Below are positions 12,737 through 55,849 of a DNA stretch of 64,000 bases, one piece after another (within the stretch, counting starts at the first letter, position 1; each line of letters opens with the position of its first letter). The notes under the pieces were generated by a model. It did not search any database. It worked only from the letters and a program-made list of their open reading frames with translations, and was not told where the DNA came from. This stretch comes from a virus: UHGV virus genome UHGV-0311442; one strand, given 5' to 3'. The position numbers were made by a program, and so were the translations under genes.

Positions 12737-13271
12737 AATTCGACTTCTGGATAAGTTTCTGGAAAACAGTAAGCTATTCGGTTGTTATGTGGTGATTAAC
12801 GGTGAAGATTTTACCGATGACGTAAAACGCTTACTGATTCGTCACGGTGTGACTGTAATCATCCCAATGTACTGCACCGAACTTACTGACCTGTCGGTCG
12901 CGGAAATTGAAAAACGTAACCCAGGGTTTGAAGAACGGGTATTGGATTTCCCACGTCACAAAATTGCGTTTCTACGCCGCTCTTTAAGCGAACCCAGCGC
13001 AGAATCTATCACTGTGTTGGCATTGTCCTTCCCCGGCATTACTATCTTCGCAACACGTAACCCGAACTCACCGATTGATGGGTTTTACGATGAGCGAGAG
13101 AAATTTAATACCGTGATTTTTCCTGAGCTAACGCCAGAAGAATGCCAGGGTATCCGTATCGATTGGGAATCGGACTTCGACACAAGATTCCGTCATATCG
13201 ATTTTGAACTGTTAATCGAATTAGGGTTGATTAAAGGAGACGATGAATGTCTGCTACTGGTGAAGGCTTAA
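12699..13271 (+). CDS. Hypothetical protein (cluster-associated)
   Basis: ORF overlapping the 3' end of the rSAM gene; same operon. Confidence 0.55.
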   Translation: MKPILINNITKRRIRLLDKFLENSKLFGCYVVINGEDFTDDVKRLLIRHGVTVIIPMYCTELTDLSVAEIEKRNPGFEERVLDFPRHKIAFLRRSLSEPSAESITVLALSFPGITIFATRNPNSPIDGFYDEREKFNTVIFPELTPEECQGIRIDWESDFDTRFRHIDFELLIELGLIKGDDECLLLVKA

Positions 13272-17125: not shown

Positions 17126-17712
17126 TTTACTAACCCCGCCTTCACTACATAATCCGGCATTTCCCTGAACACACGTGCGTACCAGCCGTAAGCGAATTTT
17201 TCATTCTTCTTACGCTTTTCGGAGATTTCTGTGTAGTAGGTTACCTGGTGTGAGATTAACGCAAAGATTAAGATGCCTAACCCCTCGTCTTTACGGTAAT
17301 TCAGATAAGCATTCAGGGCACCTAGCGTTTTAGGTCCCATACCGCCGTCGGTGTCAATATCTGCGTAAAGTTTCCCTTCGTTATTTAAAACGTTCAGAAT
17401 ACGTTGTAACGATTTCACACAGTTAACGCGGCCAGAGTTAATAGCAAAATCAAACATCCGGTCTGCGAGTAAGGGTGAAATAGCTAAAATCTCATCGAGT
17501 TTAAGTTTCTTCCACCAACCGCGATCGTAAATATCAAACGCCTGCGCACGGGTCAGATCCTTCATTTTTCCTTTATACCCGTATTCGCGTGCAGTTGTTA
17601 GTGTTACACCGTGACAGGTTTCCCCACCTTTATCGTCAGGGTCGTTTACGTACCCGCCTTCTAAATCTGTTTTCGAAGCAATAATACCTTCTTTAGTCCA
17701 ACGTTCGGCCAT
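17122..17712 (-). CDS. Endolysin: GH108-family muramidase with C-terminal peptidoglycan-binding domain
   Basis: N-terminal EGGYVNDPDDKGGETCHGVT signature of glycoside hydrolase family 108; C-terminal region typical of the PG_binding_3-type domain. Confidence 0.8.
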   Translation of the reverse strand: MAERWTKEGIIASKTDLEGGYVNDPDDKGGETCHGVTLTTAREYGYKGKMKDLTRAQAFDIYDRGWWKKLKLDEILAISPLLADRMFDFAINSGRVNCVKSLQRILNVLNNEGKLYADIDTDGGMGPKTLGALNAYLNYRKDEGLGILIFALISHQVTYYTEISEKRKKNEKFAYGWYARVFREMPDYVVKAGLVK

Positions 17713-17773
17713 TTTGTTTAACTCCTCTTTTACACAAAAAAAGAAAAGAGGGTGGGATTACCCCACCCTGTCG

Positions 17774-18250
17774 TTATTTCTTCTTAGCGCGTGATGGCTT
17801 AGCTGGCGGTGTTTCAACAGTCGGTTTACGCGCAACGCGCACTGTAAAACCACCGACCCAGGTTAGGCACTCAGGACGGAAGAAAATGCCGTGCTCGATT
17901 GCACTGCCGCCCAGCGGTAACTCACCAACCTGCTCTACCCATACGTCGTCTTCAGTAAGGGTTAAGCCATACTGTTCGTTAATTACAGGCAACAGGTCCG
18001 CAGTCGTGGTGGCTGTTTCAACTAACAGTTTCGGCAATACGTTGAGGAAATACAAACCGGCATCGATGCGGTTATACTGGAACGTTTGCTTATTAGCATA
18101 ACCGAGATTCTTAACCGCCACAACCGTAATTTCGGTATTGTACGCACCGGTACTTACGACGGGCTCACCCAATGTAACTTTGGCGGTGTCGAACTCAGCG
18201 TCTGGGTTAGCCTTTTTAATAAGGTCGAAGATAGTTTCTTGACTGGTCAT
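17774..18250 (-). CDS. Paralog family A protein (158 aa)
   Basis: Shares the FQYNRID and ADLLPVINEQYGLTLTEDDV motifs with the other family members. Confidence 0.65.
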   Translation of the reverse strand: MTSQETIFDLIKKANPDAEFDTAKVTLGEPVVSTGAYNTEITVVAVKNLGYANKQTFQYNRIDAGLYFLNVLPKLLVETATTTADLLPVINEQYGLTLTEDDVWVEQVGELPLGGSAIEHGIFFRPECLTWVGGFTVRVARKPTVETPPAKPSRAKKK

Positions 18251-41893: not shown

Positions 41894-41962
41894 TTAAGCT
41901 GTTCCTCAATTAATTTTTGTTTACGTGTGCATAATTAGACACGAAAGCGTAAAAATAAATAC

Positions 41963-41988
41963 TCCCTCTCTCCAAACGGAGAGAGGGA
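41963..41988 (-). terminator. Rho-independent terminator (repeated hairpin, copy 2)
   Basis: tccctctctccaaacggagagaggga with T-run on minus strand. Confidence 0.6.
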
Positions 41989-41992
41989 AAGT

Positions 41993-42774: not shown

Positions 42775-43548
42775 TTAAAAGATAAAATGGCCAGTTAATG
42801 CTTCTACTTCAACACCAGACATTGCTGGAGGTGCTGAGTATGGAAAAGTAAGACGCACGGTTGCACCCTTTAAATACGCAATACGGCAGTATGCGGTCAA
42901 GAGCGCATTCCCGTAAGTACGGTCGTTATAGAAGAAACCTTCGGTTGCAAACGTCTTTTCGTTGATTTTCGAATAGACTAAAATACCTTCAACTTTACCG
43001 TCTTTACGACAGCACAGCCCTTCGGCAGCCCCAATAGCTAACAATCCCAGGGAGTACGTATCCAAACTGACATTAGCCACCTTAGGAATCGTAAACGTTT
43101 CTTCTAACGTTAGAGATTCAATGTCAACTACATCAGGTAAATCGGTGGGAACTTCGGGTTCTTCAGTAAACGTCAGGTCATAGTCGATAGACGTCGGCTG
43201 CATACCCAAAAACGCCATTAACTGATCACGATGATTTAGGTCATTGGCAGGGTAGGCGACATCAAACATCTCCACATTTAACAACCGTTTGAGTTGTGCG
43301 AAATTGATGTTCTTCTTCGCAAACACAACGATTGCTGACATGTAGAAAATCTTACCGTCAGTGCGGCCGGAGAAGATTCCTTGCAGCTGATTCGTGTTCG
43401 AAAGAATGATAAAGGTCGGATCTTCAGATTCGCGAATGACGTCCTTTTCCAGTAACCCTTTCCGTACACGGGTTAGTGAAACCATTTTCCCGTCCACACC
43501 AATTGCTAAATGGTCATTACGATAATCGTGGATATCCACTATGCGCAT
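42775..43548 (-). CDS. Hypothetical protein
   Basis: ORF. Confidence 0.6.
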   Translation of the reverse strand: MRIVDIHDYRNDHLAIGVDGKMVSLTRVRKGLLEKDVIRESEDPTFIILSNTNQLQGIFSGRTDGKIFYMSAIVVFAKKNINFAQLKRLLNVEMFDVAYPANDLNHRDQLMAFLGMQPTSIDYDLTFTEEPEVPTDLPDVVDIESLTLEETFTIPKVANVSLDTYSLGLLAIGAAEGLCCRKDGKVEGILVYSKINEKTFATEGFFYNDRTYGNALLTAYCRIAYLKGATVRLTFPYSAPPAMSGVEVEALTGHFIF

Positions 43549-44363
43549 TAGAGCACTCCCAGTAATTCAGTCACTGTTTTCCGAGCGGCACCAGACGCAC
43601 CCATATAGCGACCAACTTCAATACTACGCCACTCAAAACCGTAATAAATTTCTCGGGTGAGTAGGGTGTCTGCATTTGACAAAACGACGCTGTTGCCACG
43701 TTCCACCTGCTGCTGTAGTAACTTGGCTAATTCACGATGATCCGTTTGTGAGAATTCTTTACGGTGGTATTGCGCATGTTTCGCGGTATCCGATAACGGA
43801 ATATAAGGAGGATCAGCATAAATCACGGCATCCTCAGGTGTCCGTGCTAATACAGAACGAAAGTCCTCACAAACAATTTCCAGATACTCAACTTCTGCGC
43901 AACGTTTAGCCCAATCCCGAATTTCTTCTAATGGATAATAAACGCCGTTCGGGTAACGTCCAAACGGAACATTGAACCCACCACTACTGTTATAACGACA
44001 CATCCCGTTATAACCGTGACGCATTAAGTATAAAAACATTGCAGCACGTTCAACTTCGGTCATCGTTTTACCGCTATTAAACAGTTCACGACGTTCCATA
44101 TACTTTACAGTGGTATTGCCGTCTAAGAACAACGGTTGCGATGCAGCGATCAGTTCTTCAGGCTGTTCACGCGCAACACAAAGTAAGCGTATCAAATCGG
44201 GGTTAGAATCCGATAGAATATACCGGCTGTAATTCGTATTTAGGAAAACAGACCCTGCGCCCACAAACGGTTCTACAAAGGTTGTACGTTTAGGTAAGAC
44301 CTTTTGTAATTCACCCAAAACGCGCGTTTTCCCACCCATCCATTTAATTATCGGTTTCCGCAT
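43548..44363 (-). CDS. dam: DNA adenine methyltransferase (Dam-type, GATC N6-adenine MTase)
   Basis: VEPFVGAGSVFLNT (SAM binding), LFLYLMRHGYNGMCRYNSSGGFNVPFGRY and catalytic DPPY motifs, co-linear with E. coli Dam. Confidence 0.9.
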   Translation of the reverse strand: MRKPIIKWMGGKTRVLGELQKVLPKRTTFVEPFVGAGSVFLNTNYSRYILSDSNPDLIRLLCVAREQPEELIAASQPLFLDGNTTVKYMERRELFNSGKTMTEVERAAMFLYLMRHGYNGMCRYNSSGGFNVPFGRYPNGVYYPLEEIRDWAKRCAEVEYLEIVCEDFRSVLARTPEDAVIYADPPYIPLSDTAKHAQYHRKEFSQTDHRELAKLLQQQVERGNSVVLSNADTLLTREIYYGFEWRSIEVGRYMGASGAARKTVTELLGVL

Positions 44364-45342
44364 TATATCCGCCTTGTAACGATGACACTTCGTCGACTAA
44401 CACCAATTTGACATGATTTTTCTGACGCTCCCAACTGACGACGTTTTCGTCACGCACTAAAACAAATTCGTATTCGTAGGGGCGGAATTTAAATAATTCG
44501 ACGGCCAGGTGCCTGAATGCAGGGTTGTTATTGAAACACCCTATCTCTAATGGTGCCGCTGTTGTCGATGCAATTTGTAGAGCACGATACAATAAAGTCC
44601 GTCCGATACCACGACCCCGATGTGTCTCACTTACCGCAATGGCTTTTAATTCACATTCGTTAAGATTACGCAATTTAACTTGCACCGCGCCCACAACATC
44701 GTTGCCGTCCATCCAAACGTAGGTGTGGTGGTTGACATGACGTACTAACTCCACCAACGTTTCGACTTGTGGCATGATTTGACGTGAGCGACTCACAGGG
44801 TCAGCGTTGATGTTTTCAACGACACTCGTACCCAAAAGCAACATAAGCTGTTCACGTTGTGCAGCGGTTAGCTCTTTATAAAAATCGCCGGAAATGTTCT
44901 TCACGTTTGTTGGTAGAGCGATATCCAATAACGAGCGTGTACCTAAACGATACGTAGTGTGGGTGTGTCTAAATCCTAAGTCATTAAGCTCAGCGATTTC
45001 TTCTACACCACTGGCGATTCGATTAAGATACGTAAAACCGGTATAGTCGAGTACCAGTAGCAGGTTCAGTTTGTTCAAACAACCCGGTACAATTTCATGC
45101 ATATACAAACAGTGTAACGTTGGGTCGCCGTAAATGTGTTTTGTGATGATAAACCCTTGGATTGTTTTTCCTTTTTGTAAAGAGAACGTATTCAGTTCAC
45201 TATTGCACAACGCCTCACGAATCACCGCGCCGTTAGGGCCCGATAAACATGCCTGAAGTTGAGGGTTGCGAATATCTCTACGTGCTAACCGACCTACTGT
45301 TAAATCCGTGGCGGTATGTTTTATAATCTTCATAAAAGCCAT
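44344..45342 (-). CDS. Protein with C-terminal GNAT acetyltransferase domain
   Basis: HRGRGIGRTLL acetyl-CoA binding motif (R/Q-x-x-G-x-G/A) near the C-terminus. Confidence 0.6.
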   Translation of the reverse strand: MAFMKIIKHTATDLTVGRLARRDIRNPQLQACLSGPNGAVIREALCNSELNTFSLQKGKTIQGFIITKHIYGDPTLHCLYMHEIVPGCLNKLNLLLVLDYTGFTYLNRIASGVEEIAELNDLGFRHTHTTYRLGTRSLLDIALPTNVKNISGDFYKELTAAQREQLMLLLGTSVVENINADPVSRSRQIMPQVETLVELVRHVNHHTYVWMDGNDVVGAVQVKLRNLNECELKAIAVSETHRGRGIGRTLLYRALQIASTTAAPLEIGCFNNNPAFRHLAVELFKFRPYEYEFVLVRDENVVSWERQKNHVKLVLVDEVSSLQGGYNAETDN

Positions 45343-45406
45343 GTTAATTACTCCTTAAAAGGTCGTCTCAAAACAATACGCTAAAGTTGTAAAAACAAAA
45401 AAGAAA

Positions 45407-45424
45407 GGGGAACCGAAGTTCCCC
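45407..45424 (-). terminator. Rho-independent terminator
   Basis: ggggaaccgaagttcccc hairpin with T-run on minus strand. Confidence 0.55.
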
Positions 45425-45436
45425 AATTATTAAACA

Positions 45437-46108
45437 TCATGCAGAAGGGGCAGAGTTTGTAAAAGCAAGATTGGGTGTCAAGCCAGCTTTCCCTAATTTT
45501 TCATACAGGTAATTGAAAAATCTGAGATGGGCGTCGTAGTGGCCAGCCGCTACTCGCTGACCGTAAACTTCTACCAAGTCAGGCGAAAACTTAATATGGC
45601 AGTTTTGTCTAGAGAACAAAGGTTGTTGCACCCCACCCTTAATTAAGATGCGATACTTTTTACCGTCGTCTGTTACGGCGTGAAGAATATTTGTACTGAA
45701 ATGGAAATAGATAGAAGGGTTAAAACACAACCAGGTGGCGGCAGTGATTAGTAAGTCAGCTAACTTAACAGCGATTTTGTCAAGTTCAGGCCCTTCAAAC
45801 TTATGCATTAACCGCAGAAGAATTTCAGTAATAACCGTGCCTGTAAGTAATTTGTCTCTATTGAGACCAGGTGCAACCGCCAAAACATCACCATTATAAG
45901 TGCAGACAAGTGTGAATAAGTTGAAAGGCTGGTCTTGATAAAGTTCGAAAACCAGGTCAGTATACGGGCTAAAAGTTAAGAATTTCACCCCGAGTATTTC
46001 ATTAACGCAGGGTAAAAGCTCAACTTTCACAGGCGGTTGTGCTTCGTTAACTTTAGTCTCGTTCTTTACAGTTTCTTCAATTACAGTTTTACCAATTTTC
46101 GGTGGCAT
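45437..46108 (-). CDS. Hypothetical protein
   Basis: ORF. Confidence 0.6.
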   Translation of the reverse strand: MPPKIGKTVIEETVKNETKVNEAQPPVKVELLPCVNEILGVKFLTFSPYTDLVFELYQDQPFNLFTLVCTYNGDVLAVAPGLNRDKLLTGTVITEILLRLMHKFEGPELDKIAVKLADLLITAATWLCFNPSIYFHFSTNILHAVTDDGKKYRILIKGGVQQPLFSRQNCHIKFSPDLVEVYGQRVAAGHYDAHLRFFNYLYEKLGKAGLTPNLAFTNSAPSA

Positions 46109-46129
46109 GATAATACTCCTTCAGGTTGA

Positions 46130-46489
46130 TTAGTGCGTTGCGGTGTTAGTGATAAAACGCACATTCTTCGTGGTGCGTTTAATGGACGTGTTTGCAACGT
46201 AGTCCAACGCTGATTCTACGTGAACGGTTACTGAGCAACGACCCTTAACGGAATTAAAACTAATCTGGTATTTCAGACGAATCGCATCAGCAACTTTCAT
46301 CATAATCGGCAAGCTTAAACGTTCTGAGTGATCGTTCTTAATAGACGAGATAACAGGTTGTGAAACTTTCGCAAGCTGGGCAAGTTCACGCTGGGTAATG
46401 TCTTTTGTGGTCAAGTGACGAATTACGTAAGACAAGTGAAGACCGAATTTACGTTTTGCCAGAACGATGGAATTGTGATTGTAAGCCAT
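46130..46489 (-). CDS. Putative HTH DNA-binding protein
   Basis: ITQRELAQLAKVSQPVISSIKN resembles an XRE-type helix-turn-helix; preceded by the promoter-like motif. Confidence 0.5.
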   Translation of the reverse strand: MAYNHNSIVLAKRKFGLHLSYVIRHLTTKDITQRELAQLAKVSQPVISSIKNDHSERLSLPIMMKVADAIRLKYQISFNSVKGRCSVTVHVESALDYVANTSIKRTTKNVRFITNTATH

Positions 46490-46525
46490 TGTAAATACTC
46501 CTTTAGGTTAACAAGTCGGTGTAAA

Positions 46526-46579
46526 GAGTTAGTTGTAACTCTCATCTAAGTAAAATATATCTGAGAAAAAATAAAATAT
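46526..46579 (-). promoter_or_regulatory. Conserved promoter-like motif plus 5'-UTR hairpin (copy 3)
   Basis: Hairpin gagtta..taactc then TCTAAGTAAAATATATCTGAGAAAAAATAAAATAT. Confidence 0.45.
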
Positions 46580-46603
46580 AGGTACCACCCAACGGTGGTA
46601 CCT
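46580..46603 (-). terminator. Rho-independent terminator
   Basis: aggtaccaccc / gggtggtacct hairpin with T-run on minus strand. Confidence 0.55.
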
Positions 46604-46609
46604 AAGCGG

Positions 46610-47233
46610 TTAGTTTGCTAAAATGTGCGTAACAATCTCAGCGGCTTTCAAACGGTAATCGTCATTCTGCGTTACTGGTAATAATGCGTGAAGACAACCA
46701 CCTTCTGTTAAGATGTGATGCGCGAAACGATAATGGTCGCGTAGGCCATCCCAACATTGATTGTCCATTAGATACTTAACCGTAAGTACCTCATCGTCCC
46801 AATTCTTACCTTGTTCTTCTACACGTTTCTTAAATCGCGCTAACGCTGTTGGGTAATCAACATCAGTCCAAACATAAAGGTCGGGTGCGTGGAAATGACG
46901 AGTTAGCTTACGTTGGAAAACTACGTCCTTGCCATCTGTCCCCTGATAAACAATCGTTGAAGGGCAAAAACGATCGAAAATGACGACATCGTACTCGTCA
47001 ACAACATGGTCTAACGTGTGAAGGAAGTCATCACACATTGCTTCAGCAATTTTTGTTTTCGAAGCAGACTGTACAACCAAGCTACGTGCACGAATACCCG
47101 CCTCGGTTTCAGACGTCGGATGGTTCCGAATACACACTTTTAATCCTGCGGACTCCAACATCGCTTTTACCATTTTACACAACGTTGATTTCCCAGAAAA
47201 ATCAGGACCATCAATAGACACGGTCTTAAGCAT
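46610..47233 (-). CDS. P-loop nucleoside-monophosphate (thymidylate-type) kinase
   Basis: Walker A IDGPDFSGKST and DRF (TMK DRY-like) motif. Confidence 0.6.
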   Translation of the reverse strand: MLKTVSIDGPDFSGKSTLCKMVKAMLESAGLKVCIRNHPTSETEAGIRARSLVVQSASKTKIAEAMCDDFLHTLDHVVDEYDVVIFDRFCPSTIVYQGTDGKDVVFQRKLTRHFHAPDLYVWTDVDYPTALARFKKRVEEQGKNWDDEVLTVKYLMDNQCWDGLRDHYRFAHHILTEGGCLHALLPVTQNDDYRLKAAEIVTHILAN

Positions 47234-47295
47234 TATTGTTTTACCTTTACGCGCTTTTAGATAAAAGGGGTGTAAAAAACACCCCTTAGTTTTAC

Positions 47296-47910
47296 TTACA
47301 ATTCAAAATATGTGGAAATTAAGCTCTCAAGGTTACGTTCTTCGTACACTTCCTTACTCGTAGGGTAACCGACGGTATGGTATTTCGCTGTAAAAGAAAT
47401 GGCCTTGTTTGCAACGACGTACCGGTCATCGATACTCACCTTTTCAGGATGCTTGAGGCTGAGCGTGACGGTACGTATATGGGTCACCTCAAAATCTTTG
47501 ATGATAACGCGATCTCTGTGTCGTGAGATAGCAAAATTGCTACTGCCCGCCACGAACTCCTCATAACCGCCGACCAATTTAAGAGCTGCTAAACATGCAG
47601 TATAAGCGGGATATTTATCAGCCAATAGTTGTTCTTTTGTTACAAAGAGTTTATAGTCTTCCTCATCGCGAAGGTATCTCAGCAATAATTGGGAACGGAA
47701 TTTCGACAACAGTCTTTCGTACTGCGATTCCCAGAGTTTTCCATTTTCAGTGAAGAGATGACCAACGGTATACTTTAATTTCTCACCTTCATAAATCAAA
47801 AGCGAATTTTTCGAGACAAAGCCCGCATTCTTTCTATTTTCGCCAATTTCATTTTCAGCAACTTCAACTAAAGTGTAGTTGTTAGGGAGTTCAAAGCGCT
47901 TAATTTCCAT
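47296..47910 (-). CDS. Hypothetical protein
   Basis: ORF. Confidence 0.6.
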   Translation of the reverse strand: MEIKRFELPNNYTLVEVAENEIGENRKNAGFVSKNSLLIYEGEKLKYTVGHLFTENGKLWESQYERLLSKFRSQLLLRYLRDEEDYKLFVTKEQLLADKYPAYTACLAALKLVGGYEEFVAGSSNFAISRHRDRVIIKDFEVTHIRTVTLSLKHPEKVSIDDRYVVANKAISFTAKYHTVGYPTSKEVYEERNLESLISTYFEL

Positions 47911-48038
47911 AATTTATCTCTCTTTAAATTGGTGAGTTACCGACTCACTACGGTTGTCACATTGATAATATCAATCTGTAATAAAATTTAGGGTAAAAAA
48001 AAAGAAACCCGCCCCTACCGTTAAGTAGGGGTAAGGTT

Positions 48039-48644
48039 TTATTGGTGATCAACAATCGGACCACTCCACACTTCTGACGTTTGTGGTGCGGTGAGGTTAG
48101 CAGCCTGTGCAGACGTTACGCACAGCAAGACTAACCCTTGTTTAGCAAGATAGTGTTGCATTCTTGCTGCCTCCACGGAGGTGTCCACAATAACGAGCTC
48201 AGCGCCACGTAGAAGCGTTAGAGCCGCTTGTCCCTCCTGTGGCGTGGTTAAAGCATCACTGTCGTCCAGAATGCGTTTAAGGCGGTTATACGCCAACCCA
48301 GTTACATTACTCCGACCTGCACGAAGATCAACAACCATATCGTTATATTCCCCCACCACTTGTTGCGTCGAATTGGGATAAAATCGAAACGCGGCACGGC
48401 GGCGTTTACGACGCACCTCAGAAATCGCGCGTTGTAAAACCAGCAAAACGTATTTCGGTGCCGCTTCGCTATTCGGTCGACGCATCTTGGCTAAACGCGC
48501 AGCTAAATCCAAAATTTTCGTTAAGGGATAGCGATGTTTAAACCCGTCACGTTCGATAGTAACGCCACGTTTAGGCAACTTGCCCGTTTTGTTGATATAC
48601 GATACTGTAATCAATAGTAATGAATCGAGAATCATCTCTGACAT
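48039..48644 (-). CDS. Hypothetical protein
   Basis: ORF followed by a terminator hairpin (48011-48030). Confidence 0.6.
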   Translation of the reverse strand: MSEMILDSLLLITVSYINKTGKLPKRGVTIERDGFKHRYPLTKILDLAARLAKMRRPNSEAAPKYVLLVLQRAISEVRRKRRRAAFRFYPNSTQQVVGEYNDMVVDLRAGRSNVTGLAYNRLKRILDDSDALTTPQEGQAALTLLRGAELVIVDTSVEAARMQHYLAKQGLVLLCVTSAQAANLTAPQTSEVWSGPIVDHQ

Positions 48645-48658
48645 TACAAGGCCCTCTC

Positions 48659-49030
48659 TTAGAACCCCTCAAGAACAGCTTTCACAAATTCGTAAACCGT
48701 GCGTCGGTGTTCTTCAAGCGGATAAACAAACTTAGAATAATCGTTGTTCCAGACAACCGGATAGAGGTCGCCATCACAACTTAAATAGCTCTTACGAACC
48801 ATGTAATAATCTAAACCTACACGGAAGTTTAACGACAGACTACCGTGTTTACTACAAACGTGTAACTGGAGCGATTTCACACCGTCGTGAGTTGGTGATT
48901 CAATCGTTTCCGCATACAATACATCCGAACACTGTTCTATAGCGCTAACGACATCTCTGAGGTTGTTGTCTGCATCGATGGTCGCTTTTCGGAGAGCGTC
49001 GGTGTATTGCTGAAGTTCTCGATAGAACAT
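48659..49030 (-). CDS. Hypothetical protein
   Basis: ORF; overlaps upstream gene by 94 nt. Confidence 0.5.
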   Translation of the reverse strand: MFYRELQQYTDALRKATIDADNNLRDVVSAIEQCSDVLYAETIESPTHDGVKSLQLHVCSKHGSLSLNFRVGLDYYMVRKSYLSCDGDLYPVVWNNDYSKFVYPLEEHRRTVYEFVKAVLEGF

Positions 49031-49569
49031 CCTGCTAATCTCCTGTCTCTACCGTATGGCAGAGGAAATGCTTTGTGTTCAAATTCTGCAACGACATACG
49101 CAGGATAGAACAAAAGGTATTTATAGAACGTAGACAACGTAACGTTTTTCTGGGTGGCTAAAAAGTAATTAAGATCGGGGTTGTCTGGAAAAGCAAAATG
49201 CAACCCTGTGTATACCTGACCTTTATACTCCCCATTAAAGGGTGTGACTGCACATCGTGGGTGTGTCGGCTCGACGTGTAACCAACGACTTCTTACGTGA
49301 TAAACGCCACGGACTGTCGCGTTTCGTGTTTTACCCAAATAACGGCAACGGATATTCTTTTCCCACGCCGCACGTTGAGTGGGTGAACCCAGAGAAACAA
49401 ACCGCGTTAAAGCTTCAGGTGTAAAGTAATCAAAAATGCCGGTCGGTAAACACCAACACGCTTTATCGATTCGTACCACTCTCCAACCAGGACGAAAACC
49501 CACAGCGTAACGCTCTACACCAAAAGTATATCTAGACCCGTCATGAAACGGTACTAATCTTGCAGCCAT
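48937..49569 (-). CDS. Hypothetical protein
   Basis: ORF. Confidence 0.55.
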   Translation of the reverse strand: MAARLVPFHDGSRYTFGVERYAVGFRPGWRVVRIDKACWCLPTGIFDYFTPEALTRFVSLGSPTQRAAWEKNIRCRYLGKTRNATVRGVYHVRSRWLHVEPTHPRCAVTPFNGEYKGQVYTGLHFAFPDNPDLNYFLATQKNVTLSTFYKYLLFYPAYVVAEFEHKAFPLPYGRDRRLAGCSIENFSNTPTLSEKRPSMQTTTSEMSLAL

Positions 49570-49570
49570 T

Positions 49571-50038
49571 TTAGATTTCCTTTATCATTTCCCTGCATTC
49601 GGTACGGAATCCCATTTTCTCATACAAGGAGATAGCTTTAACGTTGTTGTCTAACACATCCAGACTCATCCAACCACAACCTTTGGACTTTCCGTATTCA
49701 CGAACTTTGTCCATAAGCGCACGTCCTACCCCTTGAGAACGTGCTTCGGGAATCACATAGTAGTTCCCAATATAAACAAATGTGTCCTTCGAGCAAGAAC
49801 CTATTGAGAACGTCATGAAACCCAGAAGTTGTTCGTTGTCATCCACGGCACACGCACAGAGATAATCTTGGGGCCAAATCTCTTCTAAGTGTTCAATTGG
49901 GTTGAACGTGTCGCGACCGGTTAACTGACTAATACGCACTTTTTCTTCTGCGAACAGCATGTTGTGCAGTTTGAGTACCTGGTCGCCGTATAACTTTCCG
50001 TATTTACTGTCGGGTTTGAGAATAATAGTAATACGCAT
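49571..50038 (-). CDS. GNAT-family N-acetyltransferase
   Basis: ARSQGVGRALM motif A and typical ~155-aa length. Confidence 0.7.
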   Translation of the reverse strand: MRITIILKPDSKYGKLYGDQVLKLHNMLFAEEKVRISQLTGRDTFNPIEHLEEIWPQDYLCACAVDDNEQLLGFMTFSIGSCSKDTFVYIGNYYVIPEARSQGVGRALMDKVREYGKSKGCGWMSLDVLDNNVKAISLYEKMGFRTECREMIKEI

Positions 50039-51171
50039 TATTTAACCTCAATCAGCGACAACCTGCACCACACCAGTAACCCTTCCGCAACGCGCACTAA
50101 CGAGGTAGTAAACGCATCTTCTAAACGCAGTGCGTTTTTATAACGTACGGTAGCGTCGCGTAACTCCCGCCCTTCAAGCGACTTAAGTTCCTTACGCATA
50201 CGCTGAATTTCGTCATAAATTCCTGTATACCCTACACTACGTCGTTTCGCACCACGCTGACGTAACGCTCGGATAATGTTTCTAACGGCGTCGAGTGCTG
50301 AACCGATTTCGTGCAAGTTCAGAGATTTGATTGTGTGGCCAAAATCACCGTCGCGAGCAATCGCCCACTCAATCTTACCGTTGTTGTGTTCAACGACCAC
50401 CACGTTACCTGGCCACGGGTATGCTTTCACCGTTTTAAACGGATCGATAATACCGAACAGCCCTGCGCTTCGTTTAATCGCCCAGTTCGTTGACCGGCCC
50501 ACTTTCTCCAAACCACTCTCGGTAACTTTCTTGCTCTTACCGATTAACGTACGTGTTTTAACAGTATACTCGTTGACCATCGCATCCATTGCACTCAGGT
50601 TCTTACTGAACTCAATACATGCTTTTACGTTAGGCTTGTCTTCTAAACAAACTTTGGTTGTCCAACTTCCCGTGTCACAGTCAACCGGTTCTAAAGTGTC
50701 CTTGATACCGAGTAAACTTAAACGTGCTTCTAACTTCTGTAGCTTGCGCTCTAACGACGATGCTTTGGACGTCGCTTCTTTCAGTTCATTAATAACTTCT
50801 TTACCGGCGGCTTCCGCGAAGTCGATAAAACGTAAGGCCAATTGCTTAGAATGTTTACCTGCGAATTTTCCAGACGCTTTGGCTCCCGCCACTGCTGCTT
50901 TTCCAGCAACGCGTCCAACTCCCTTAACCGCTCTGCCGGTCGCACGCGCGACCGCTTTACCTACCCCTGCGTAAGGCTCGGTGTCCGCAACAAATTGCGC
51001 GCGTTCCATCATCGCTGCAGACTCCAACGCAACGTGGACATCATCTAAAGCCCACCGTTTTCGGATAGCGACAACCGCCGGATAATTGTCTTTAACATTA
51101 AGCGATTCTAACGCGACCAAACGATCGTAGTCATCGCAAAGGACTTCTAAATCGGAATCTAATGTTGACAT
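50038..51171 (-). CDS. Hypothetical protein
   Basis: ORF. Confidence 0.6.
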   Translation of the reverse strand: MSTLDSDLEVLCDDYDRLVALESLNVKDNYPAVVAIRKRWALDDVHVALESAAMMERAQFVADTEPYAGVGKAVARATGRAVKGVGRVAGKAAVAGAKASGKFAGKHSKQLALRFIDFAEAAGKEVINELKEATSKASSLERKLQKLEARLSLLGIKDTLEPVDCDTGSWTTKVCLEDKPNVKACIEFSKNLSAMDAMVNEYTVKTRTLIGKSKKVTESGLEKVGRSTNWAIKRSAGLFGIIDPFKTVKAYPWPGNVVVVEHNNGKIEWAIARDGDFGHTIKSLNLHEIGSALDAVRNIIRALRQRGAKRRSVGYTGIYDEIQRMRKELKSLEGRELRDATVRYKNALRLEDAFTTSLVRVAEGLLVWCRLSLIEVK

Positions 51172-51221
51172 CCTTTACCCCATTTTAAGCTAAAGCGGGG
51201 AGAAGCCCGCCCTGACTAACT

Positions 51222-51770
51222 TCATAATAAGCGTAGGTCTTCTAACCACTTAGATGCATCCGTAACATGATAATAACAAGGGATGTTCAGTGACTGTGCG
51301 TAGCGGACACCCATCGCCGTACCCCCTTTTGGATTTCCCTTTTTATCATGCTCAGCGTAATAATAGACGGCGTCTACATGATCGTCCAAAGAATCACCTG
51401 ATACAATATTTAAGTTTCGTCCATGCAACACCCAAGCTATTTCCGATAGCTTATCAGGATTAGGGTGAAGCGATGCCACAATCCCACGATAACGGACGTC
51501 TTGTGGAATAACGCGAAAATCCACATTCGGATGTAACTTACGTAACCACAACTTACGTTCGTCAGGCAAATAACAAATATGTGGTCCTGGTTCAGTACGT
51601 GCTAACATAAACTGTAATTGGTCTGGTCCTTTGTAACAACCGCCTGACCGCGTTTCGATACTGTGCTGTTTATTACGAAGAATTTTGAACCCGCGTTGCA
51701 ACACATCCAACATTTCATGCATCGTGTCTTCGGGCGTTTCTCGAGAACCAATAATAGCAATTTTATACAT
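51222..51770 (-). CDS. Hypothetical protein with N-terminal IAIIGSR Rossmann-like motif (SLOG/DprA-like fold?)
   Basis: ORF; motif only; followed by terminator hairpin 51816-51843. Confidence 0.4.
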   Translation of the reverse strand: MYKIAIIGSRETPEDTMHEMLDVLQRGFKILRNKQHSIETRSGGCYKGPDQLQFMLARTEPGPHICYLPDERKLWLRKLHPNVDFRVIPQDVRYRGIVASLHPNPDKLSEIAWVLHGRNLNIVSGDSLDDHVDAVYYYAEHDKKGNPKGGTAMGVRYAQSLNIPCYYHVTDASKWLEDLRLL

Positions 51771-51857
51771 TTGTCACCTCCATACTGAAGTTGTGAAGTG
51801 AAAAAAAAAGAAAGCAGGAGAGAACCTTTTCAGGGTTCTCTCCTATCGGTGATGTTA

Positions 51858-52520
51858 TCACGCTTCTAAACCACTTAAAACGACGGTCTCGAGTAACGCT
51901 TTGCCCATCCAGACGTCCAACTCACCATCTAAGCCCCCTAAAGGACGTTTATTCAGTTCGTTGTTGTAATTAAGTCCGTCAAGGGTTTTATTCGTAATAA
52001 TTTGCCCAATATGAAGCGGTAGAATAAATCGATTTCGTGCGCTATAAATAAACGAATCACATTCGTAAATTACCACATAGCGCTCGAGATCCTCATCATA
52101 CTCAACGTGACACTGCGAGCCCGTGTCCCATGCACGCGACAAAACCATACCACGGTCTTGACACATCTTCTCCACCGACACTTTCGCGGACTCTGCCCAT
52201 TTATCGTAATTTTTAGGTTGGCCGTTTTCGAAATCGAACCAATCCAGATACTTACCGGGAATATCAAGAAAGTCGTTCAATTGAAGTTTCGTGTAAGATA
52301 TCATCACCGCGTCGTTAATATCATTGCGGTTAGTTAACTTTACTCGATACCGACCTTCCGGTGTGGGTGCGCCTATTAAAGAAACATCCACTTTCTCAGC
52401 CGAAAGCTTTTTACGTACACTGCCGCTATTACAGTAACTAACGAGGTTGAGTAAGTTCTGTCTATGACCAACTTCAAAATCAATTACAAAAGACATACAA
52501 ACTCCGCGGGGGTTAATCAC
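51858..52520 (-). CDS. Hypothetical protein
   Basis: ORF. Confidence 0.6.
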   Translation of the reverse strand: MINPRGVCMSFVIDFEVGHRQNLLNLVSYCNSGSVRKKLSAEKVDVSLIGAPTPEGRYRVKLTNRNDINDAVMISYTKLQLNDFLDIPGKYLDWFDFENGQPKNYDKWAESAKVSVEKMCQDRGMVLSRAWDTGSQCHVEYDEDLERYVVIYECDSFIYSARNRFILPLHIGQIITNKTLDGLNYNNELNKRPLGGLDGELDVWMGKALLETVVLSGLEA

Positions 52521-52912
52521 TAATACCCGTATAATGGGTACCGTGCGGTGATCTCATCACCAACATAGAAAGTTAAACGTTGAACATTAATACTTTTATT
52601 TGCGTAGGGTACAGTTTCTAACGTTACCTTTACACTGGCAGAACAACTACCCGGATCAACAAACTGATATGTACGCCGTTTGATGTTTACCAAATAGTAG
52701 CCGCCTGCCGGGCACAATTCGGTTTTACCGTAATTTACCGTGGCGAACTCATCGTTTTGAACTGCAACAACTGGCTGGTCGGTAGATTTAAAAACGACGG
52801 GTTTATCGCCCGGCACTGTAGGTTCAAAACGACTAATATCGTGCGGTTTAAATTCCGCGAACGCGGAAAATGAAAGTAACGTTAGAAATAGGGTAATGAC
52901 AGTTCGTTTCAT
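52520..52912 (-). CDS. Secreted protein (signal peptide)
   Basis: N-terminus MKRTVITLFLTLLSFSAFA is a typical Sec signal peptide. Confidence 0.6.
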   Translation of the reverse strand: MKRTVITLFLTLLSFSAFAEFKPHDISRFEPTVPGDKPVVFKSTDQPVVAVQNDEFATVNYGKTELCPAGGYYLVNIKRRTYQFVDPGSCSASVKVTLETVPYANKSINVQRLTFYVGDEITARYPLYGY

Positions 52913-53388
52913 CGGTCTACCTCATCAAGATGATCGCGTAGCCATGGCATCGACTCTAAGCGCGGAATCATATTCCGTGTGTTCGGCGAAAACCATAGCG
53001 CTTCACGATATTTCTTTTTGAAACGTTCCCAGTGATACGAGAAAGGTTTGGGTGTAAAACCGCGCTCTTTTAGCACCTCCTCCCAAACCAAGTCTTTAAT
53101 AAAATCGTCCACTAAAATTAATACCAACACTTTCCATTTACTGCGTCGGTAGTGCCGTGTAAAAGATTTGCGGAGATCAGAAAAGTCCTCTCGACGACGA
53201 GAACGTACTGCTGGAGTTGCCTTCTCTTTAAATTGCGAACAAGGATTATGTTGTAGTATCGTTACAGGAACTCCCCGAACACGGCCTGTACGTAAATCAA
53301 CCTCGTGTGCGGGGATAACTTCAACGCAACGTAACACTTTTGCTTTATTGCCTTCCAAGCACCGCGTCTCATATTCGACACGAATCAT
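52909..53388 (-). CDS. Hypothetical basic protein
   Basis: ORF. Confidence 0.55.
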   Translation of the reverse strand: MIRVEYETRCLEGNKAKVLRCVEVIPAHEVDLRTGRVRGVPVTILQHNPCSQFKEKATPAVRSRRREDFSDLRKSFTRHYRRSKWKVLVLILVDDFIKDLVWEEVLKERGFTPKPFSYHWERFKKKYREALWFSPNTRNMIPRLESMPWLRDHLDEVDR

Positions 53389-53407
53389 TTTGGGCTCTCA
53401 ACTGTTT

Positions 53408-53884
53408 CTAATAAATCTTATCCGCAACAGAGAGAAAGATGGGGGTGTTTTCAATAAAATCCACCAAATATCCTTCTTCCGGCGGGGCGTATGACGAATC
53501 AACGTTACTGTTCGTCATACGAAAATACCGACGGGAGTCACTGGCAATAAACCATCGGTCTATTTGGAAGCCTTTTTTGGAAAAGAAACACAGTCCGTCA
53601 ATGTTTGAGGGATGCACACGACACATCACCATTTGACGATCTGAATTAAGTTGAACGTATTTCAGTAAAAAGGAACCTACACCGCTACGACGAGAACCTT
53701 CGGCCACTACCAGATAGATAAGATTCCCCGGCTCCCAGATTGCAACCCCATGTGTAATATCATCTTCAACGGCCAACGTAATTTTAACTGGCGTTTCTCG
53801 AATCGAATTTAAGTCTTTGACGTATTCACGTAATTCAGGAAATTTAGCGGAAATTTTGTCTTCGGTAATATCTAACTGCTGCAT
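53408..53884 (-). CDS. GNAT-family N-acetyltransferase
   Basis: RRSGVGSFLL motif A. Confidence 0.6.
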   Translation of the reverse strand: MQQLDITEDKISAKFPELREYVKDLNSIRETPVKITLAVEDDITHGVAIWEPGNLIYLVVAEGSRRSGVGSFLLKYVQLNSDRQMVMCRVHPSNIDGLCFFSKKGFQIDRWFIASDSRRYFRMTNSNVDSSYAPPEEGYLVDFIENTPIFLSVADKIY

Positions 53885-54564
53885 TATTGTTCCCCTATCG
53901 ATAAAACGTTTTTAACAAATTCATCCCACGTGGTGTTCCCACCAGAAGTAAATAAACTGCTAAGTGGAACGTTTCGATGCTGTGGAATAATCGCATCGAG
54001 TTTCGTTACTGGAACTTCGGCCCATAAAGCCCAACCGTACAACCCCTCCACTGTTTTTCTCTCACCACGTAGGGACGGCACCCACCAGGTAAACTGTATG
54101 AATCTTTTACCACGACAGATTTTAAGGCTGGTAGTAAAACCGTGGTCTAACATCCGAACGTCGTCAAACTTACAATTAATCGAGAAAAGACCATAACGGG
54201 CAAGCAATCTCCTTATCTGTAACATTAGGTCGTTTTGGTATTTGTTCAGTGTGACAGTGTCTACAAAAACCTGTCCCTTCCCGACCCCAAACCCTTTCTT
54301 TTCTAAATGCTCCGCCATTAAGGCAGACGTACTCCCCTCTACACCCGGACAATCTAGACTGCCGGATAAAGGTACTGCACGATAATAGCGATGGAGCGTC
54401 TCTTGAAAAGCCGCCGTAACAATTTTTTCCTCTTTAACGAAATCAACAATTTCCCCATTGGAGGTGACCAACGGTCCAACCTTCAGATCCTGAATAGGTA
54501 TCAGTAACGTTCTGGTCATTAAGCGTAATGGTTCCACAATAGCACTCCTTCTTTTAAGTCTCAC
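53884..54564 (-). CDS. Hypothetical protein
   Basis: ORF. Confidence 0.6.
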   Translation of the reverse strand: MRLKRRSAIVEPLRLMTRTLLIPIQDLKVGPLVTSNGEIVDFVKEEKIVTAAFQETLHRYYRAVPLSGSLDCPGVEGSTSALMAEHLEKKGFGVGKGQVFVDTVTLNKYQNDLMLQIRRLLARYGLFSINCKFDDVRMLDHGFTTSLKICRGKRFIQFTWWVPSLRGERKTVEGLYGWALWAEVPVTKLDAIIPQHRNVPLSSLFTSGGNTTWDEFVKNVLSIGEQ

Positions 54565-54626
54565 AGTATGTTTAAAAATTGTAAAAATAAAAAGAAGTAA
54601 CCTCTACCCGAAGGTAGAGGTTAATG

Positions 54627-55205
54627 TTATTTCGTTGTTGGGCTTTCTGTCTTCGACTTAAGCTGGCCTGATTTCTCAAGCTTCTTCTCAACAACTTTTG
54701 TGGCTATCTCAAGAGACTTATAAGCCAACGTTTTAATCGGCCAAGTCGCAAAAACAACCAATGCAAAGAACGGTACCAATGTCACAATCAGAACATCTAA
54801 ACTGTCTTCTGGAAAATGCTGGTGCGTGTCGTAACCCAGGAACCCGGTTACAATAACCGTCGCCAACGTCAGGAGGACAATAATGAACTTCTGGGGACCG
54901 GCTAATTTCGGCCATAAGGTTAGCATGGTTTCTTTGCTAATCTCATCCCCTAGAGATTCCACAGCGTCAGTTGCCTGCTGATGGAATTGTTCTGATATTT
55001 TGCCTAAGTTATCGATTAGCGTCGGGCGTAAGTCGGAAAGAATCTTTGTTCCCGAACGGGTAACGTCAACGTCGACGTCATCCCCATACGCCGCTTTCAA
55101 GAGTTTCGTTAACTGTTCAGACTGTTCTTTACTTAACTTTCTGTTTCCAGCTTGGATCAATAAGTCAAGTATTTCAGTGGGTAGTGCTTGTGTGCTCGGT
55201 TCCAT
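54627..55205 (-). CDS. Membrane protein (2 predicted TM helices)
   Basis: Hydrophobic segments FIIVLLTLATVIVTGFLGY and IVTLVPFFALVVFATWPI; terminator hairpin 54601-54620 downstream. Confidence 0.6.
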   Translation of the reverse strand: MEPSTQALPTEILDLLIQAGNRKLSKEQSEQLTKLLKAAYGDDVDVDVTRSGTKILSDLRPTLIDNLGKISEQFHQQATDAVESLGDEISKETMLTLWPKLAGPQKFIIVLLTLATVIVTGFLGYDTHQHFPEDSLDVLIVTLVPFFALVVFATWPIKTLAYKSLEIATKVVEKKLEKSGQLKSKTESPTTK

Positions 55206-55849
55206 TATCGTTTTCTCCGACGCCTTCTCCGCCTGGAGGTCTTAGTCGACTTTTGTTTAGGCGGTAGCAGGCTGTTTAAGTTTAACAGATTTACCCTGAC
55301 GAAAATATTTCCCACCGCCACAGCATCAATACTGTGCTCATCTAACGTTGTAATATCAAACAAAGCATGTTCGCGATAGAGCTTGGTCACGGCCCGAAAC
55401 ATATCGGTTTTATCCGTCCCCTTCGCTTCCACCCCAACGAATGATTTTACAATGATAGGATTGAAGCCGTGTAAAATTTTCTCCGGGTAAACGTCCCACA
55501 AAGTACGTCGCAACATTAATTGTAGTTCGACACCAGATTCATAAGCGGAGAGTTTTGCTCTCCGCATAAACGGTGTCTCTGTTGCAACGAAAGTTGGGCA
55601 GGCAATCCGAAGAAATTCACGGTAACAAGCTTCGAGCTTAACTAAACGATCGTCACGTTTACCGACACACTCTGCAAACGCATTTGGATGCGTTGGGTCT
55701 AATACATGCATGGTATCAGCCCAAACCACTTCGGCTTGATCGCTGCCGTATTCCCAATCCAATACTGCCATACCAAGATGGCTCGTACCGGGGTCTATTG
55801 CCGCGATTCTTACCATCTTATCTGGAAGTCTCGGCTCGGGTATCAACAT
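55205..55849 (-). CDS. RuvC-like Holliday-junction resolvase with poly-Arg C-terminal tail
   Basis: N-terminal RIAAIDPGTSHLGMAVL (RuvC-fold xIDPGxxxxGxAV motif); C-terminus KTSRRRRRRRKR. Confidence 0.65.
   Translation of the reverse strand: MLIPEPRLPDKMVRIAAIDPGTSHLGMAVLDWEYGSDQAEVVWADTMHVLDPTHPNAFAECVGKRDDRLVKLEACYREFLRIACPTFVATETPFMRRAKLSAYESGVELQLMLRRTLWDVYPEKILHGFNPIIVKSFVGVEAKGTDKTDMFRAVTKLYREHALFDITTLDEHSIDAVAVGNIFVRVNLLNLNSLLPPKQKSTKTSRRRRRRRKR

Follow-up and report, generated by a model that had tools for sequence, protein, structure and literature searches.

Introduction

Jumbo phages of ~240 kb related to SPN3US carry, in a conserved gene order, up to three genes for acetyltransferases of the GNAT (Gcn5-related N-acetyltransferase) fold. 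SPN3US packages a virion RNA polymerase (RNAP) in its head and encodes a chimallin homologue (PMC9365700), which places the clade among the nucleus-forming, phiKZ-related phages. Here we examine the three GNAT genes found in a 64,000-nucleotide stretch of the virus genome UHGV-0311442, referred to below, at its full length, as the window. The genes are designated G1 (44344–45342), G2 (49571–50038) and G3 (53408–53884), and all lie on the minus strand.

SPN3US-like phages already carry annotations for this trio, a crystal structure exists for one of its members and assays have been done on orthologues of another; the annotation itself is therefore routine, and what is new here is another member of the group. 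There are, however, two literatures bearing on G2 that we found unlinked. Members of the G2 lineage acetylate spermidine (Li et al. 2023), and lists of SPN3US head proteins contain this protein but do not comment on it (Thomas 2016 and its 2017 follow-up). Spermidine activity and capsid presence within one orthologous group suggest a virion-delivered amine acetyltransferase. On balance we think it probable that the window derives from a jumbo phage of the SPN3US/phiEaH2/Caitlin/Wellington group, with Salmonella or E. coli as host, which carries a conserved syntenic trio of unrelated GNATs in transcription units of their own and likely with substrates of their own, G2 being a packaged enzyme of small-amine type and G1 and G3 having the roles proposed in the Discussion.

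Results

Three separate GNAT lineages in a conserved gene order

An earlier note on this DNA had proposed three GNAT genes, and minus-strand open reading frames (ORFs) of 332 (G1), 155 (G2) and 158 (G3) amino acids are found exactly at the positions it gave. By its own criterion the proposal would fail if conserved acetyl-CoA-binding residues were lacking; motif A (R/Q-x-x-G-x-G/A, between beta4 and alpha3) is intact in all three, as RGRGIG in the C-terminal half of G1 (residues 242–247, nt 44602–44619), RSQGVG in G2 (residues 100–105, nt 49724–49741) and RRSGVG in G3 (residues 65–70, nt 53675–53692), and it is kept in the orthologues of G2 and G3. Profile classification, which the note had also suggested, succeeds through Pfam for G1 and G2. 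The Acetyltransf_1 family (cut-off 20.7 bits) matches G2 with E=1.4e-19 (70.9 bits) and G1 with E=1.9e-12 (47.9 bits) over residues 198–280 only, in agreement with the predicted position of the GNAT domain at the C-terminal end of G1. G3 scores 22.9 bits against Acetyltransf_7 (E=1.1e-4), under the 27-bit gathering score. Despite this, G3 is clearly a GNAT: it matches PHROG 7861 'acetyltransferase' (E=1.7e-70) and the PDB entry 7DQG, 'Crystal structure of Salmonella phage acetyltransferase' (E=1.4e-61), its family aligns with that of G2 at 92% probability in hhalign, and a Foldseek search with its AlphaFold model, which has a moderate predicted TM-score (pTM 0.58) and was used for fold class and not for substrate, returned 7DQG first (TM 0.64) and GNATs in all other places.

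When the 227 window ORFs with 50 residues or more were all searched with hidden Markov models (HMMs) of the three families, cross-matches among the families appeared only at E=5e-5 or weaker, and no fourth GNAT was detected among these ORFs, that at 42775–43548 included. The G2 family aligns with the other two at 92–96% probability in hhalign (95.6% for the C-terminal domain of G1); the C-terminal domain of G1 against the G3 family gives 8–21%. Because the family HMMs cross-match only marginally, G1, G2 and G3 are, as judged by profile comparison, three separate GNAT lineages and not recent duplicates. A further GNAT-like gene of ~150 residues occurs elsewhere in the genomes of SPN3US-like phages (SPFM8_00187 of a Salmonella phage, 30% identity to G2, PF13508), and second tblastn places for G2 were found in EC001, Lh1B, 1252 and JN03; there is no counterpart within the window.

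The SPN3US orthologues are gp104 (SPN3US_0104) for G1, gp95 (SPN3US_0095) for G2 and gp88 (SPN3US_0088) for G3, with identities of 30% (over 92% of the length), 48% (47.7%) and 61%, respectively. Protein-level orthologues are found in the ~240-kb jumbo phages, namely Salmonella phage SPN3US with its relatives (Seoulvirus), the Erwinia phages phiEaH2, Asesino and Stratton (Erskinevirus), Caitlin (Machinavirus) and Wellington, and also Kwan. By megablast against 50,697 phage records the window gave a 55-bp match only, with no match at ~85% nucleotide identity or more. The common order runs from virion structural genes through a gp87-like gene, G3, a DprA-like gene, an internal head protein (IHP) gene, G2, thymidylate kinase and a helix-turn-helix gene to G1 and a Dam-like methyltransferase, with further genes after G3, G2 and the helix-turn-helix gene. 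This order is shared with SPN3US, Caitlin, Wellington, a 225-kb metagenome scaffold and a 222-kb E. coli 'plasmid', and in the Erskineviruses Asesino and phiEaH2 it is the same except that G1 is absent and the Dam-like methyltransferase is kept. Orientation, gene lengths and neighbours also agree between the window and SPN3US, Caitlin and Wellington for all three genes, and between the window and Asesino and phiEaH2 for G2 and G3. Compared with SPN3US, the window lacks the gp93 gene and G2 has Gly91 where gp95 has Tyr.

G2 is coupled to an internal head protein gene

G2 is a canonical GNAT of 155 residues that also matches PHROG 3810 (E=1.6e-44) and is 46–51% identical to its orthologues. Directly upstream, at 50038–51171 on the minus strand, is the IHP gene, a member of the phiKZ_IP family (PF12699, E=4.2e-7; PHROG 2497, E=5.2e-74) and the orthologue of SPN3US gp94. 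The stop codon of the IHP gene overlaps the start codon of G2 in the sequence TAATG, and the adjacency of the two genes is kept in all eight loci examined.

The SPN3US orthologue of G2 has been detected repeatedly in virus particles. In purified particles of two amber mutants gp95 (17.6 kDa) gave 17, 12 and 11 spectra, and in tailless heads it gave 6 (Thomas 2016, Table S4). In wild-type virions it was represented by 8 peptides and 15 spectra at 56% coverage, with a ratio of spectral count to mass (SC/M) of 0.85, and its coverage in further mutant preparations was 45–66% (Front Microbiol 2017 and its supplements). In the same work the neighbouring head protein gp94 had an SC/M of 0.84 and the portal, present in 12 copies, one of 0.93. 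That the value for gp95 is so near those of gp94 and the portal points to a low-copy component of the head. The orthologues of G3 and G1, gp88 and gp104, are in neither of the two SPN3US virion lists (Thomas 2016; Front Microbiol 2017). For the window phage itself, packaging of G2 is predicted from its conserved coupling to the IHP gene, the detection of gp95 in heads being data from SPN3US.

G2 resembles diamine and polyamine acetyltransferases

Two of three assayed orthologues of G2 were positive for N-acetylspermidine: phiEaH2 YP_007237670 and Caitlin YP_009292176 made this product in E. coli BL21 delta-speG, as given in the assay results of Li et al. (2023, PMC9992855). Annotation look-ups identify the three assayed proteins as syntenic orthologues of G2, with identities of 49.7% (phiEaH2), 45.8% (Caitlin) and 47.7% (SPN3US), and the phiEaH2 protein, which spans 17618–18082 of NC_019929, is the tblastn match of G2 in the same gene context. 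Like G2, the two active enzymes are encoded directly downstream of an IHP gene and keep motif A and the equivalent of Tyr139. The comparison given by Li et al. found no BLAST-detectable similarity between the phiEaH2-type and the SPBc2-type phage spermidine N-acetyltransferase (PMC9992855).

The best PDB sequence matches of G2 are diamine acetyltransferase 2 (SSAT2, 2bei, E=4.9e-10), nourseothricin acetyltransferase, AAC(6') and polyamine acetyltransferase, and no cut-off was reached among the NCBIfam equivalogs (25.8 bits for the PaiA model, against 250). For the alignment of catalytic residues we used what we take to be the human SSAT1 reference sequence, which places Glu at position 92 and Tyr at position 140. 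With human SSAT1 and SSAT2 and bacterial SpeG, G2 shares the beta4/motif A/alpha3/beta5/alpha4 core and the catalytic Tyr, but it lacks an equivalent of the general base Glu92. The general-acid Tyr140 of human SSAT1 corresponds to Tyr139 of G2 (nt 49622–49624), which is invariant in 13 family members. These resemblances make it most likely that G2 acetylates small amines and belongs with the diamine/polyamine (SSAT-like) N-acetyltransferases.

G3 and the structure of its SPN3US orthologue

The divergent GNAT G3 has a crystallised orthologue. The sequence of PDB entry 7DQG (released 2021-12-29) matches SPN3US_0088 without a difference across the aligned region and is ~61% identical to G3, the C-terminal extension being kept in both. 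The structure was presumably described by Ki et al. (J Microbiol 2022), a study to which PMC12328618 refers for SPN3US and whose title states a complex with acetyl-CoA. In G3 the N-terminal arm is short, with motif A already at residue 65, and the conserved C-terminal extension of ~45 residues contains invariant YFRMTN, PxEE and PIFLS motifs. The family also has an invariant Phe at the position usually held by the general-acid Tyr. The crystallised enzyme is reportedly a C-terminal helix-swapped dimer with narrow substrate specificity. In phiEaH2 the G3 orthologue is annotated as a shortened coding sequence of 369 nt (12554–12922 of the record); tblastn aligns the full 158 residues from position 12443 (12443–12922), and the annotated start is probably wrong.

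G1 and the Dam-like methyltransferase

G1 is a two-domain protein that matches PHROG 8663 (E=3.5e-47) and occupies a syntenic position in the SPN3US-like phages. Its N-terminal domain (residues ~1–165, nt 44848–45342) is an orphan specific to the clade, and the GNAT domain (residues 198–280) is encoded at 44503–44751. Among 1.84 billion cluster representatives, an exhaustive profile search found only ~8 clusters with both domains; its remaining 123 matches were to the C-terminal GNAT only. Against PDB sequences the profile of the N-terminal domain found nothing below E=0.9. It aligns in register with GNAT profiles, albeit weakly (E=0.045–0.1, hhalign), and it has no CoA-binding motif A. The domain is possibly a degenerate tandem GNAT of the MshD-like or Eis-like type, as the register of these profiles would allow. 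An AlphaFold (AF2) model of G1 built from a 5-sequence alignment was unusable (predicted local distance difference test, pLDDT, 39).

The gene for a Dam-like N6-adenine DNA methyltransferase (43548–44363, minus strand; MethyltransfD12, E=3.4e-57) begins with an ATG placed 20 nt inside the 3' end of G1, and the two genes are adjacent in 6 of the 6 loci that have G1. This conserved overlap was the reason to test for a relationship to Mom, the GNAT-fold enzyme that modifies adenine N6 (PMC13219725). G1 could be rejected as a homologue of Mu Mom, since hhalign gave a probability below 1% for the full-length protein and for each domain; phmmer with Mu Mom against all window ORFs likewise gave no match. 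The Erskineviruses keep the Dam-like methyltransferase without G1, so G1 is dispensable for it.

Predicted transcription units

The block that contains the GNAT genes (~42–57 kb) has the same orientation as, and lies directly downstream of, orthologues of the SPN3US virion proteins gp82–gp84, and orthologues of the virion proteins gp91, gp94, gp95 and gp97 lie within it. Terminator-like hairpins on the minus strand divide the block. A hairpin with a T-run at 54598–54623 (11-bp stem, 5 GC pairs) forms the upstream boundary of the unit with the gp87-like gene and G3, and a hairpin at 51815–51845 (12-bp stem) ends this unit and precedes that of the DprA-like, IHP and G2 genes, which is itself closed by a hairpin at 48012–48031. 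Another hairpin with a T-run occupies an intergenic gap at 46579–46604. Just upstream of the G1/Dam unit is a hairpin at 45407–45424, followed by a TTTTTACA element and a strong Shine–Dalgarno sequence, AAGGAG, and the unit ends at a hairpin at 41962–41989 (12-bp stem, 7 GC pairs). The predicted units thus comprise the gp87-like gene, G3 and gp89–91-like genes; the DprA-like gene, IHP, G2 and gp96–98-like genes; and G1, Dam and three small genes. The three GNATs are therefore predicted to belong to three different transcription units split by strong terminators. Within the unit of G3, the stop codon of the gp87-like gene overlaps the start of G3, again as TAATG.

In several intergenic regions a TTTTTAC(A) element stands just after the T-run of a terminator, 8–89 nt upstream of the start codon (positions 54587, 47999, 45395, 41955, 39860, 29077 and 19137, all on the minus strand). 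The G1 and G3 units are each preceded by a terminator and then such an element, whereas TTTCAC...TATG takes its place ahead of the DprA-like/IHP/G2 unit. The element may represent a promoter class for a phage RNAP, to judge from its placement. TTTTTAC is not enriched over the window as a whole (18 matches against 23.8 expected), and given this we did not use it to assign timing. A scan for sigma-70-like promoters gave 19 sites, against 26 in shuffled sequence, as expected for a phage that has its own RNAPs.

Neighbouring genes and related elements

Two genes interleaved with the GNATs, at 55205–55849 and 51222–51770 on the minus strand, have orthologues in related phages whose annotations read RuvC-like crossover junction endonuclease (Wellington gp105) and DprA-like recombination mediator, respectively, and hence the block mixes virion, DNA-metabolism and modification genes. 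SPN3US gp93 (~90 residues) is encoded between the DprA-like and IHP genes; at that place the window has a 50-nt gap (51172–51221) with a GC-rich hairpin. In the G3 unit, a 130-residue ORF at 52520–52912 on the minus strand is the orthologue of SPN3US gp90 and begins like a typical signal peptide (MKRTVITLFLTLLSFSAFA), and its product is predicted to be a small exported protein, encoded among cytoplasmic and virion genes.

Close relatives, at 95–98% protein identity, lie on contigs of 220–225 kb in metagenomes and in assemblies of Salmonella and E. coli. The sequence NZ_CP173450.1 from E. coli strain 98232 (urine, Egypt) matches window positions 44000–54600 in its segment 59292–74291 with 82.6% DNA identity and the same gene order. 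It was deposited as a circular 221,873-bp 'plasmid' within a complete E. coli genome and resembles the genome of a jumbo phage that was assembled as a plasmid, which may reflect a carrier state or pseudolysogeny. In this element PGAP names the G1 and G2 orthologues as GNATs and leaves the G3 orthologue 'hypothetical'.

Discussion

The scheme that we propose treats the three proteins individually, each having its own transcription unit and most likely its own substrate. G2 would be co-translated with the internal head protein, and a few copies would be packed into the capsid and enter the cell along with the DNA. It would thereby be active from the first moments of infection without its gene having to be expressed early, and would acetylate a small amine, most likely spermidine or a related compound. 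G3 would be an acetyl-CoA-binding GNAT made in the infected cell, in line with the non-virion status of its orthologue in SPN3US, and its substrate range is probably narrow. In G1 a clade-specific N-terminal domain, probably serving target recognition, would be joined to a GNAT catalytic domain, the protein being translated from the same mRNA as the Dam-like methyltransferase.

Several observations weigh against this account. In the assay that was positive for phiEaH2 and Caitlin, SPN3US gp95 (YP_009153389) made no N-acetylspermidine (Li et al., PMC9992855), and among characterised phages SPN3US is ecologically the closest. Where human SSAT1 has its general base Glu92, the window protein and its close relatives have Gly (Gly91, nt 49766–49768), whereas both active phage enzymes have His and the inactive gp95 has Tyr. 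Spermidine is therefore possibly not the substrate of the window G2. The association of this residue with activity is a correlation only, over three assayed proteins. Localisation in the virion comes from SPN3US alone, at low spectral counts, and the transcription units were drawn from consensus scans only. For G1, the orthologues of Erwinia phages have Arg in place of the first Gly of motif A (QNQRIG, QNKRHG), whilst the members from Salmonella and E. coli phages have the canonical R-x-x-G-x-G; in the Erwinia-phage branch the substitution may weaken or alter cofactor binding. The suggestion of the earlier note that one role of these GNATs could be polyamine modification has experimental support for the G2 lineage, through the spermidine acetylation found for phiEaH2 and Caitlin, and is uncertain for this phage, given the inactive SPN3US orthologue. 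We regard spermidine or a related amine as the inferred substrate of the window G2, by analogy with the assayed enzymes, and as a doubtful one here.

Two alternative explanations are unlikely to about the same degree. The first sees all three as enzymes of host takeover that are expressed early and have host proteins as their acetylation targets (RNA polymerase or ribosomal proteins, for instance), on the model of phiKMV Rac or of RimI. Comparative-genomics reviews have predicted Rac-like or RimI-like roles for jumbo-phage GNATs (PMC7824862; PMC13282480), RimI is the top NCBIfam match for both G1 and G2, the structural neighbours of G3 in Foldseek include the protein N-terminal acetyltransferases Ard1 and NatC, and also PA4794, and the T-rich TTTTTACA element, a potential phage promoter, lies upstream of the G1 and G3 units. 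The RimI scores, however, are 26.6 and 51.2 bits against a cut-off of 86.4. Rac itself, a GNAT of phiKMV-type phages that triggers cleavage of the RNAP alpha subunit and has been proposed as the model for jumbo-phage GNATs, has no detectable sequence relationship to the three proteins, tblastn with all of which found no phiKMV-like phage at E<=1e-5. Rac is moreover made early, by a phage reliant on the RNAP of its host; SPN3US-like phages, by contrast, supply an RNAP themselves. The orthologue of G2 is a head protein whose gene is coupled to the IHP gene, two G2 orthologues act on a small molecule in the assay reported by Li et al. (PMC9992855), and the region is contiguous with structural genes. 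That last point also bears on the description of the locus as an early region in the earlier note, which is not supported: virion structural genes run in the same direction immediately upstream of the block, and the block itself holds orthologues of virion proteins, including the head protein gp95. If G2 acts early, we infer that it does so as a pre-made packaged enzyme and not as an early gene product. Acetylation of host proteins by G1 and G3 is possible.

The second explanation, to which we attach an equally low probability, is that G2 is an ordinary cytoplasmic spermidine N-acetyltransferase of the infected cell and that gp95 in SPN3US virions is adventitious carry-over. The low spectral counts of gp95 (6–17) would fit, as would the caution expressed by the authors over low-abundance proteins (Front Microbiol 2017), and Li et al. 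propose, in the text that discusses the assay, an intracellular role in depleting spermidine (PMC9992855). Carry-over would have to be reconciled with the presence of gp95 in every reported preparation, tailless heads among them, at 45–66% coverage, with an SC/M that equals that of the head protein gp94 and the portal, and with coupling to the IHP gene at 8 of 8 loci.

Much less probable is a role for G2, or another of the three, in detoxifying an antibiotic or amine toxin (for example an aminoglycoside or streptothricin) to the protection of the infected host. In its favour, nourseothricin acetyltransferase, AAC(6') and the STAT/Sat4 models are matched weakly at sequence level; cross-matches to antibiotic models of this kind are typical for any small-molecule GNAT, and a strictly lytic jumbo phage would have no obvious gain from such an activity. 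Antibiotic modification, one of the functions that had been raised for these genes, finds little encouragement in scores so far under the NCBIfam cut-offs (AAC_6p_group_E, 41.7 bits against 140; STAT, 35.3 against 420). Toxin-like acetylation of aminoacyl-tRNA in the manner of TacT or AtaT, which would stop host translation and had likewise been put forward, is scarcely credible: it has nothing specific in its favour beyond the similar size of GNAT toxins, which are small single-domain proteins, whereas the PDB sequence matches of the three proteins include no TacT, AtaT, KacT or ItaT chain, the neighbouring genes have no DUF1778 or ribbon-helix-helix (RHH) antitoxin-like domain in Pfam, PADLOC defence models give no match, and the assay results of Li et al. 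report no toxicity for G2 orthologues expressed in E. coli (PMC9992855). Equally hard to credit is a Mom-like acyl modification of adenine by G1 acting on DNA with the adjacent methyltransferase, as the translational coupling of the two genes at all six loci with G1 might suggest, in view of the lack of detectable similarity to Mu Mom, the match of G1 to the acetyl-CoA-type Acetyltransf_1 and the retention of Dam without G1 in Erskineviruses.

The three genes should not be treated as a single functional module, being of unrelated lineages and in three separate predicted transcription units, and the 'early region' label should be dropped. For a packaged G2, the closest functional analogue, and an analogue only, is Alt of phage T4, a host-modifying enzyme that is made late, packaged in the capsid and injected (PMC5694885). 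Alt is an ADP-ribosyltransferase, unlike G2 in fold and chemistry, and for Alt ejection and host targets are established, whereas for gp95 and G2 they are hypothetical.

A stronger form of this proposal, which we offer tentatively and hold to be doubtful, is that G2 is a pre-made amine (polyamine) acetyltransferase present in a few copies in the capsid, ejected with the genome and acting within seconds of DNA entry; it would then be the first virion-delivered acetyltransferase. A delivered G2 would possibly be active inside the early infection compartment of the nucleus-forming phages, where it could neutralise spermidine or a different amine, one that condenses the DNA on entry or on which host nucleases and CRISPR integrases depend. 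The variation between His, Tyr and Gly at the general-base position would in that case mark substrate switching between host genera.

In conclusion, the activity of the G2 lineage on spermidine and its presence in SPN3US heads belong to a single group of orthologues. If both prove true for one phage, this would mean that jumbo phages send an enzyme of metabolism or modification into the cell with their DNA, in parallel to T4 Alt but with a different chemistry. Such delivery, if true, would bear on how these phages protect their genomes before the phage nucleus forms.

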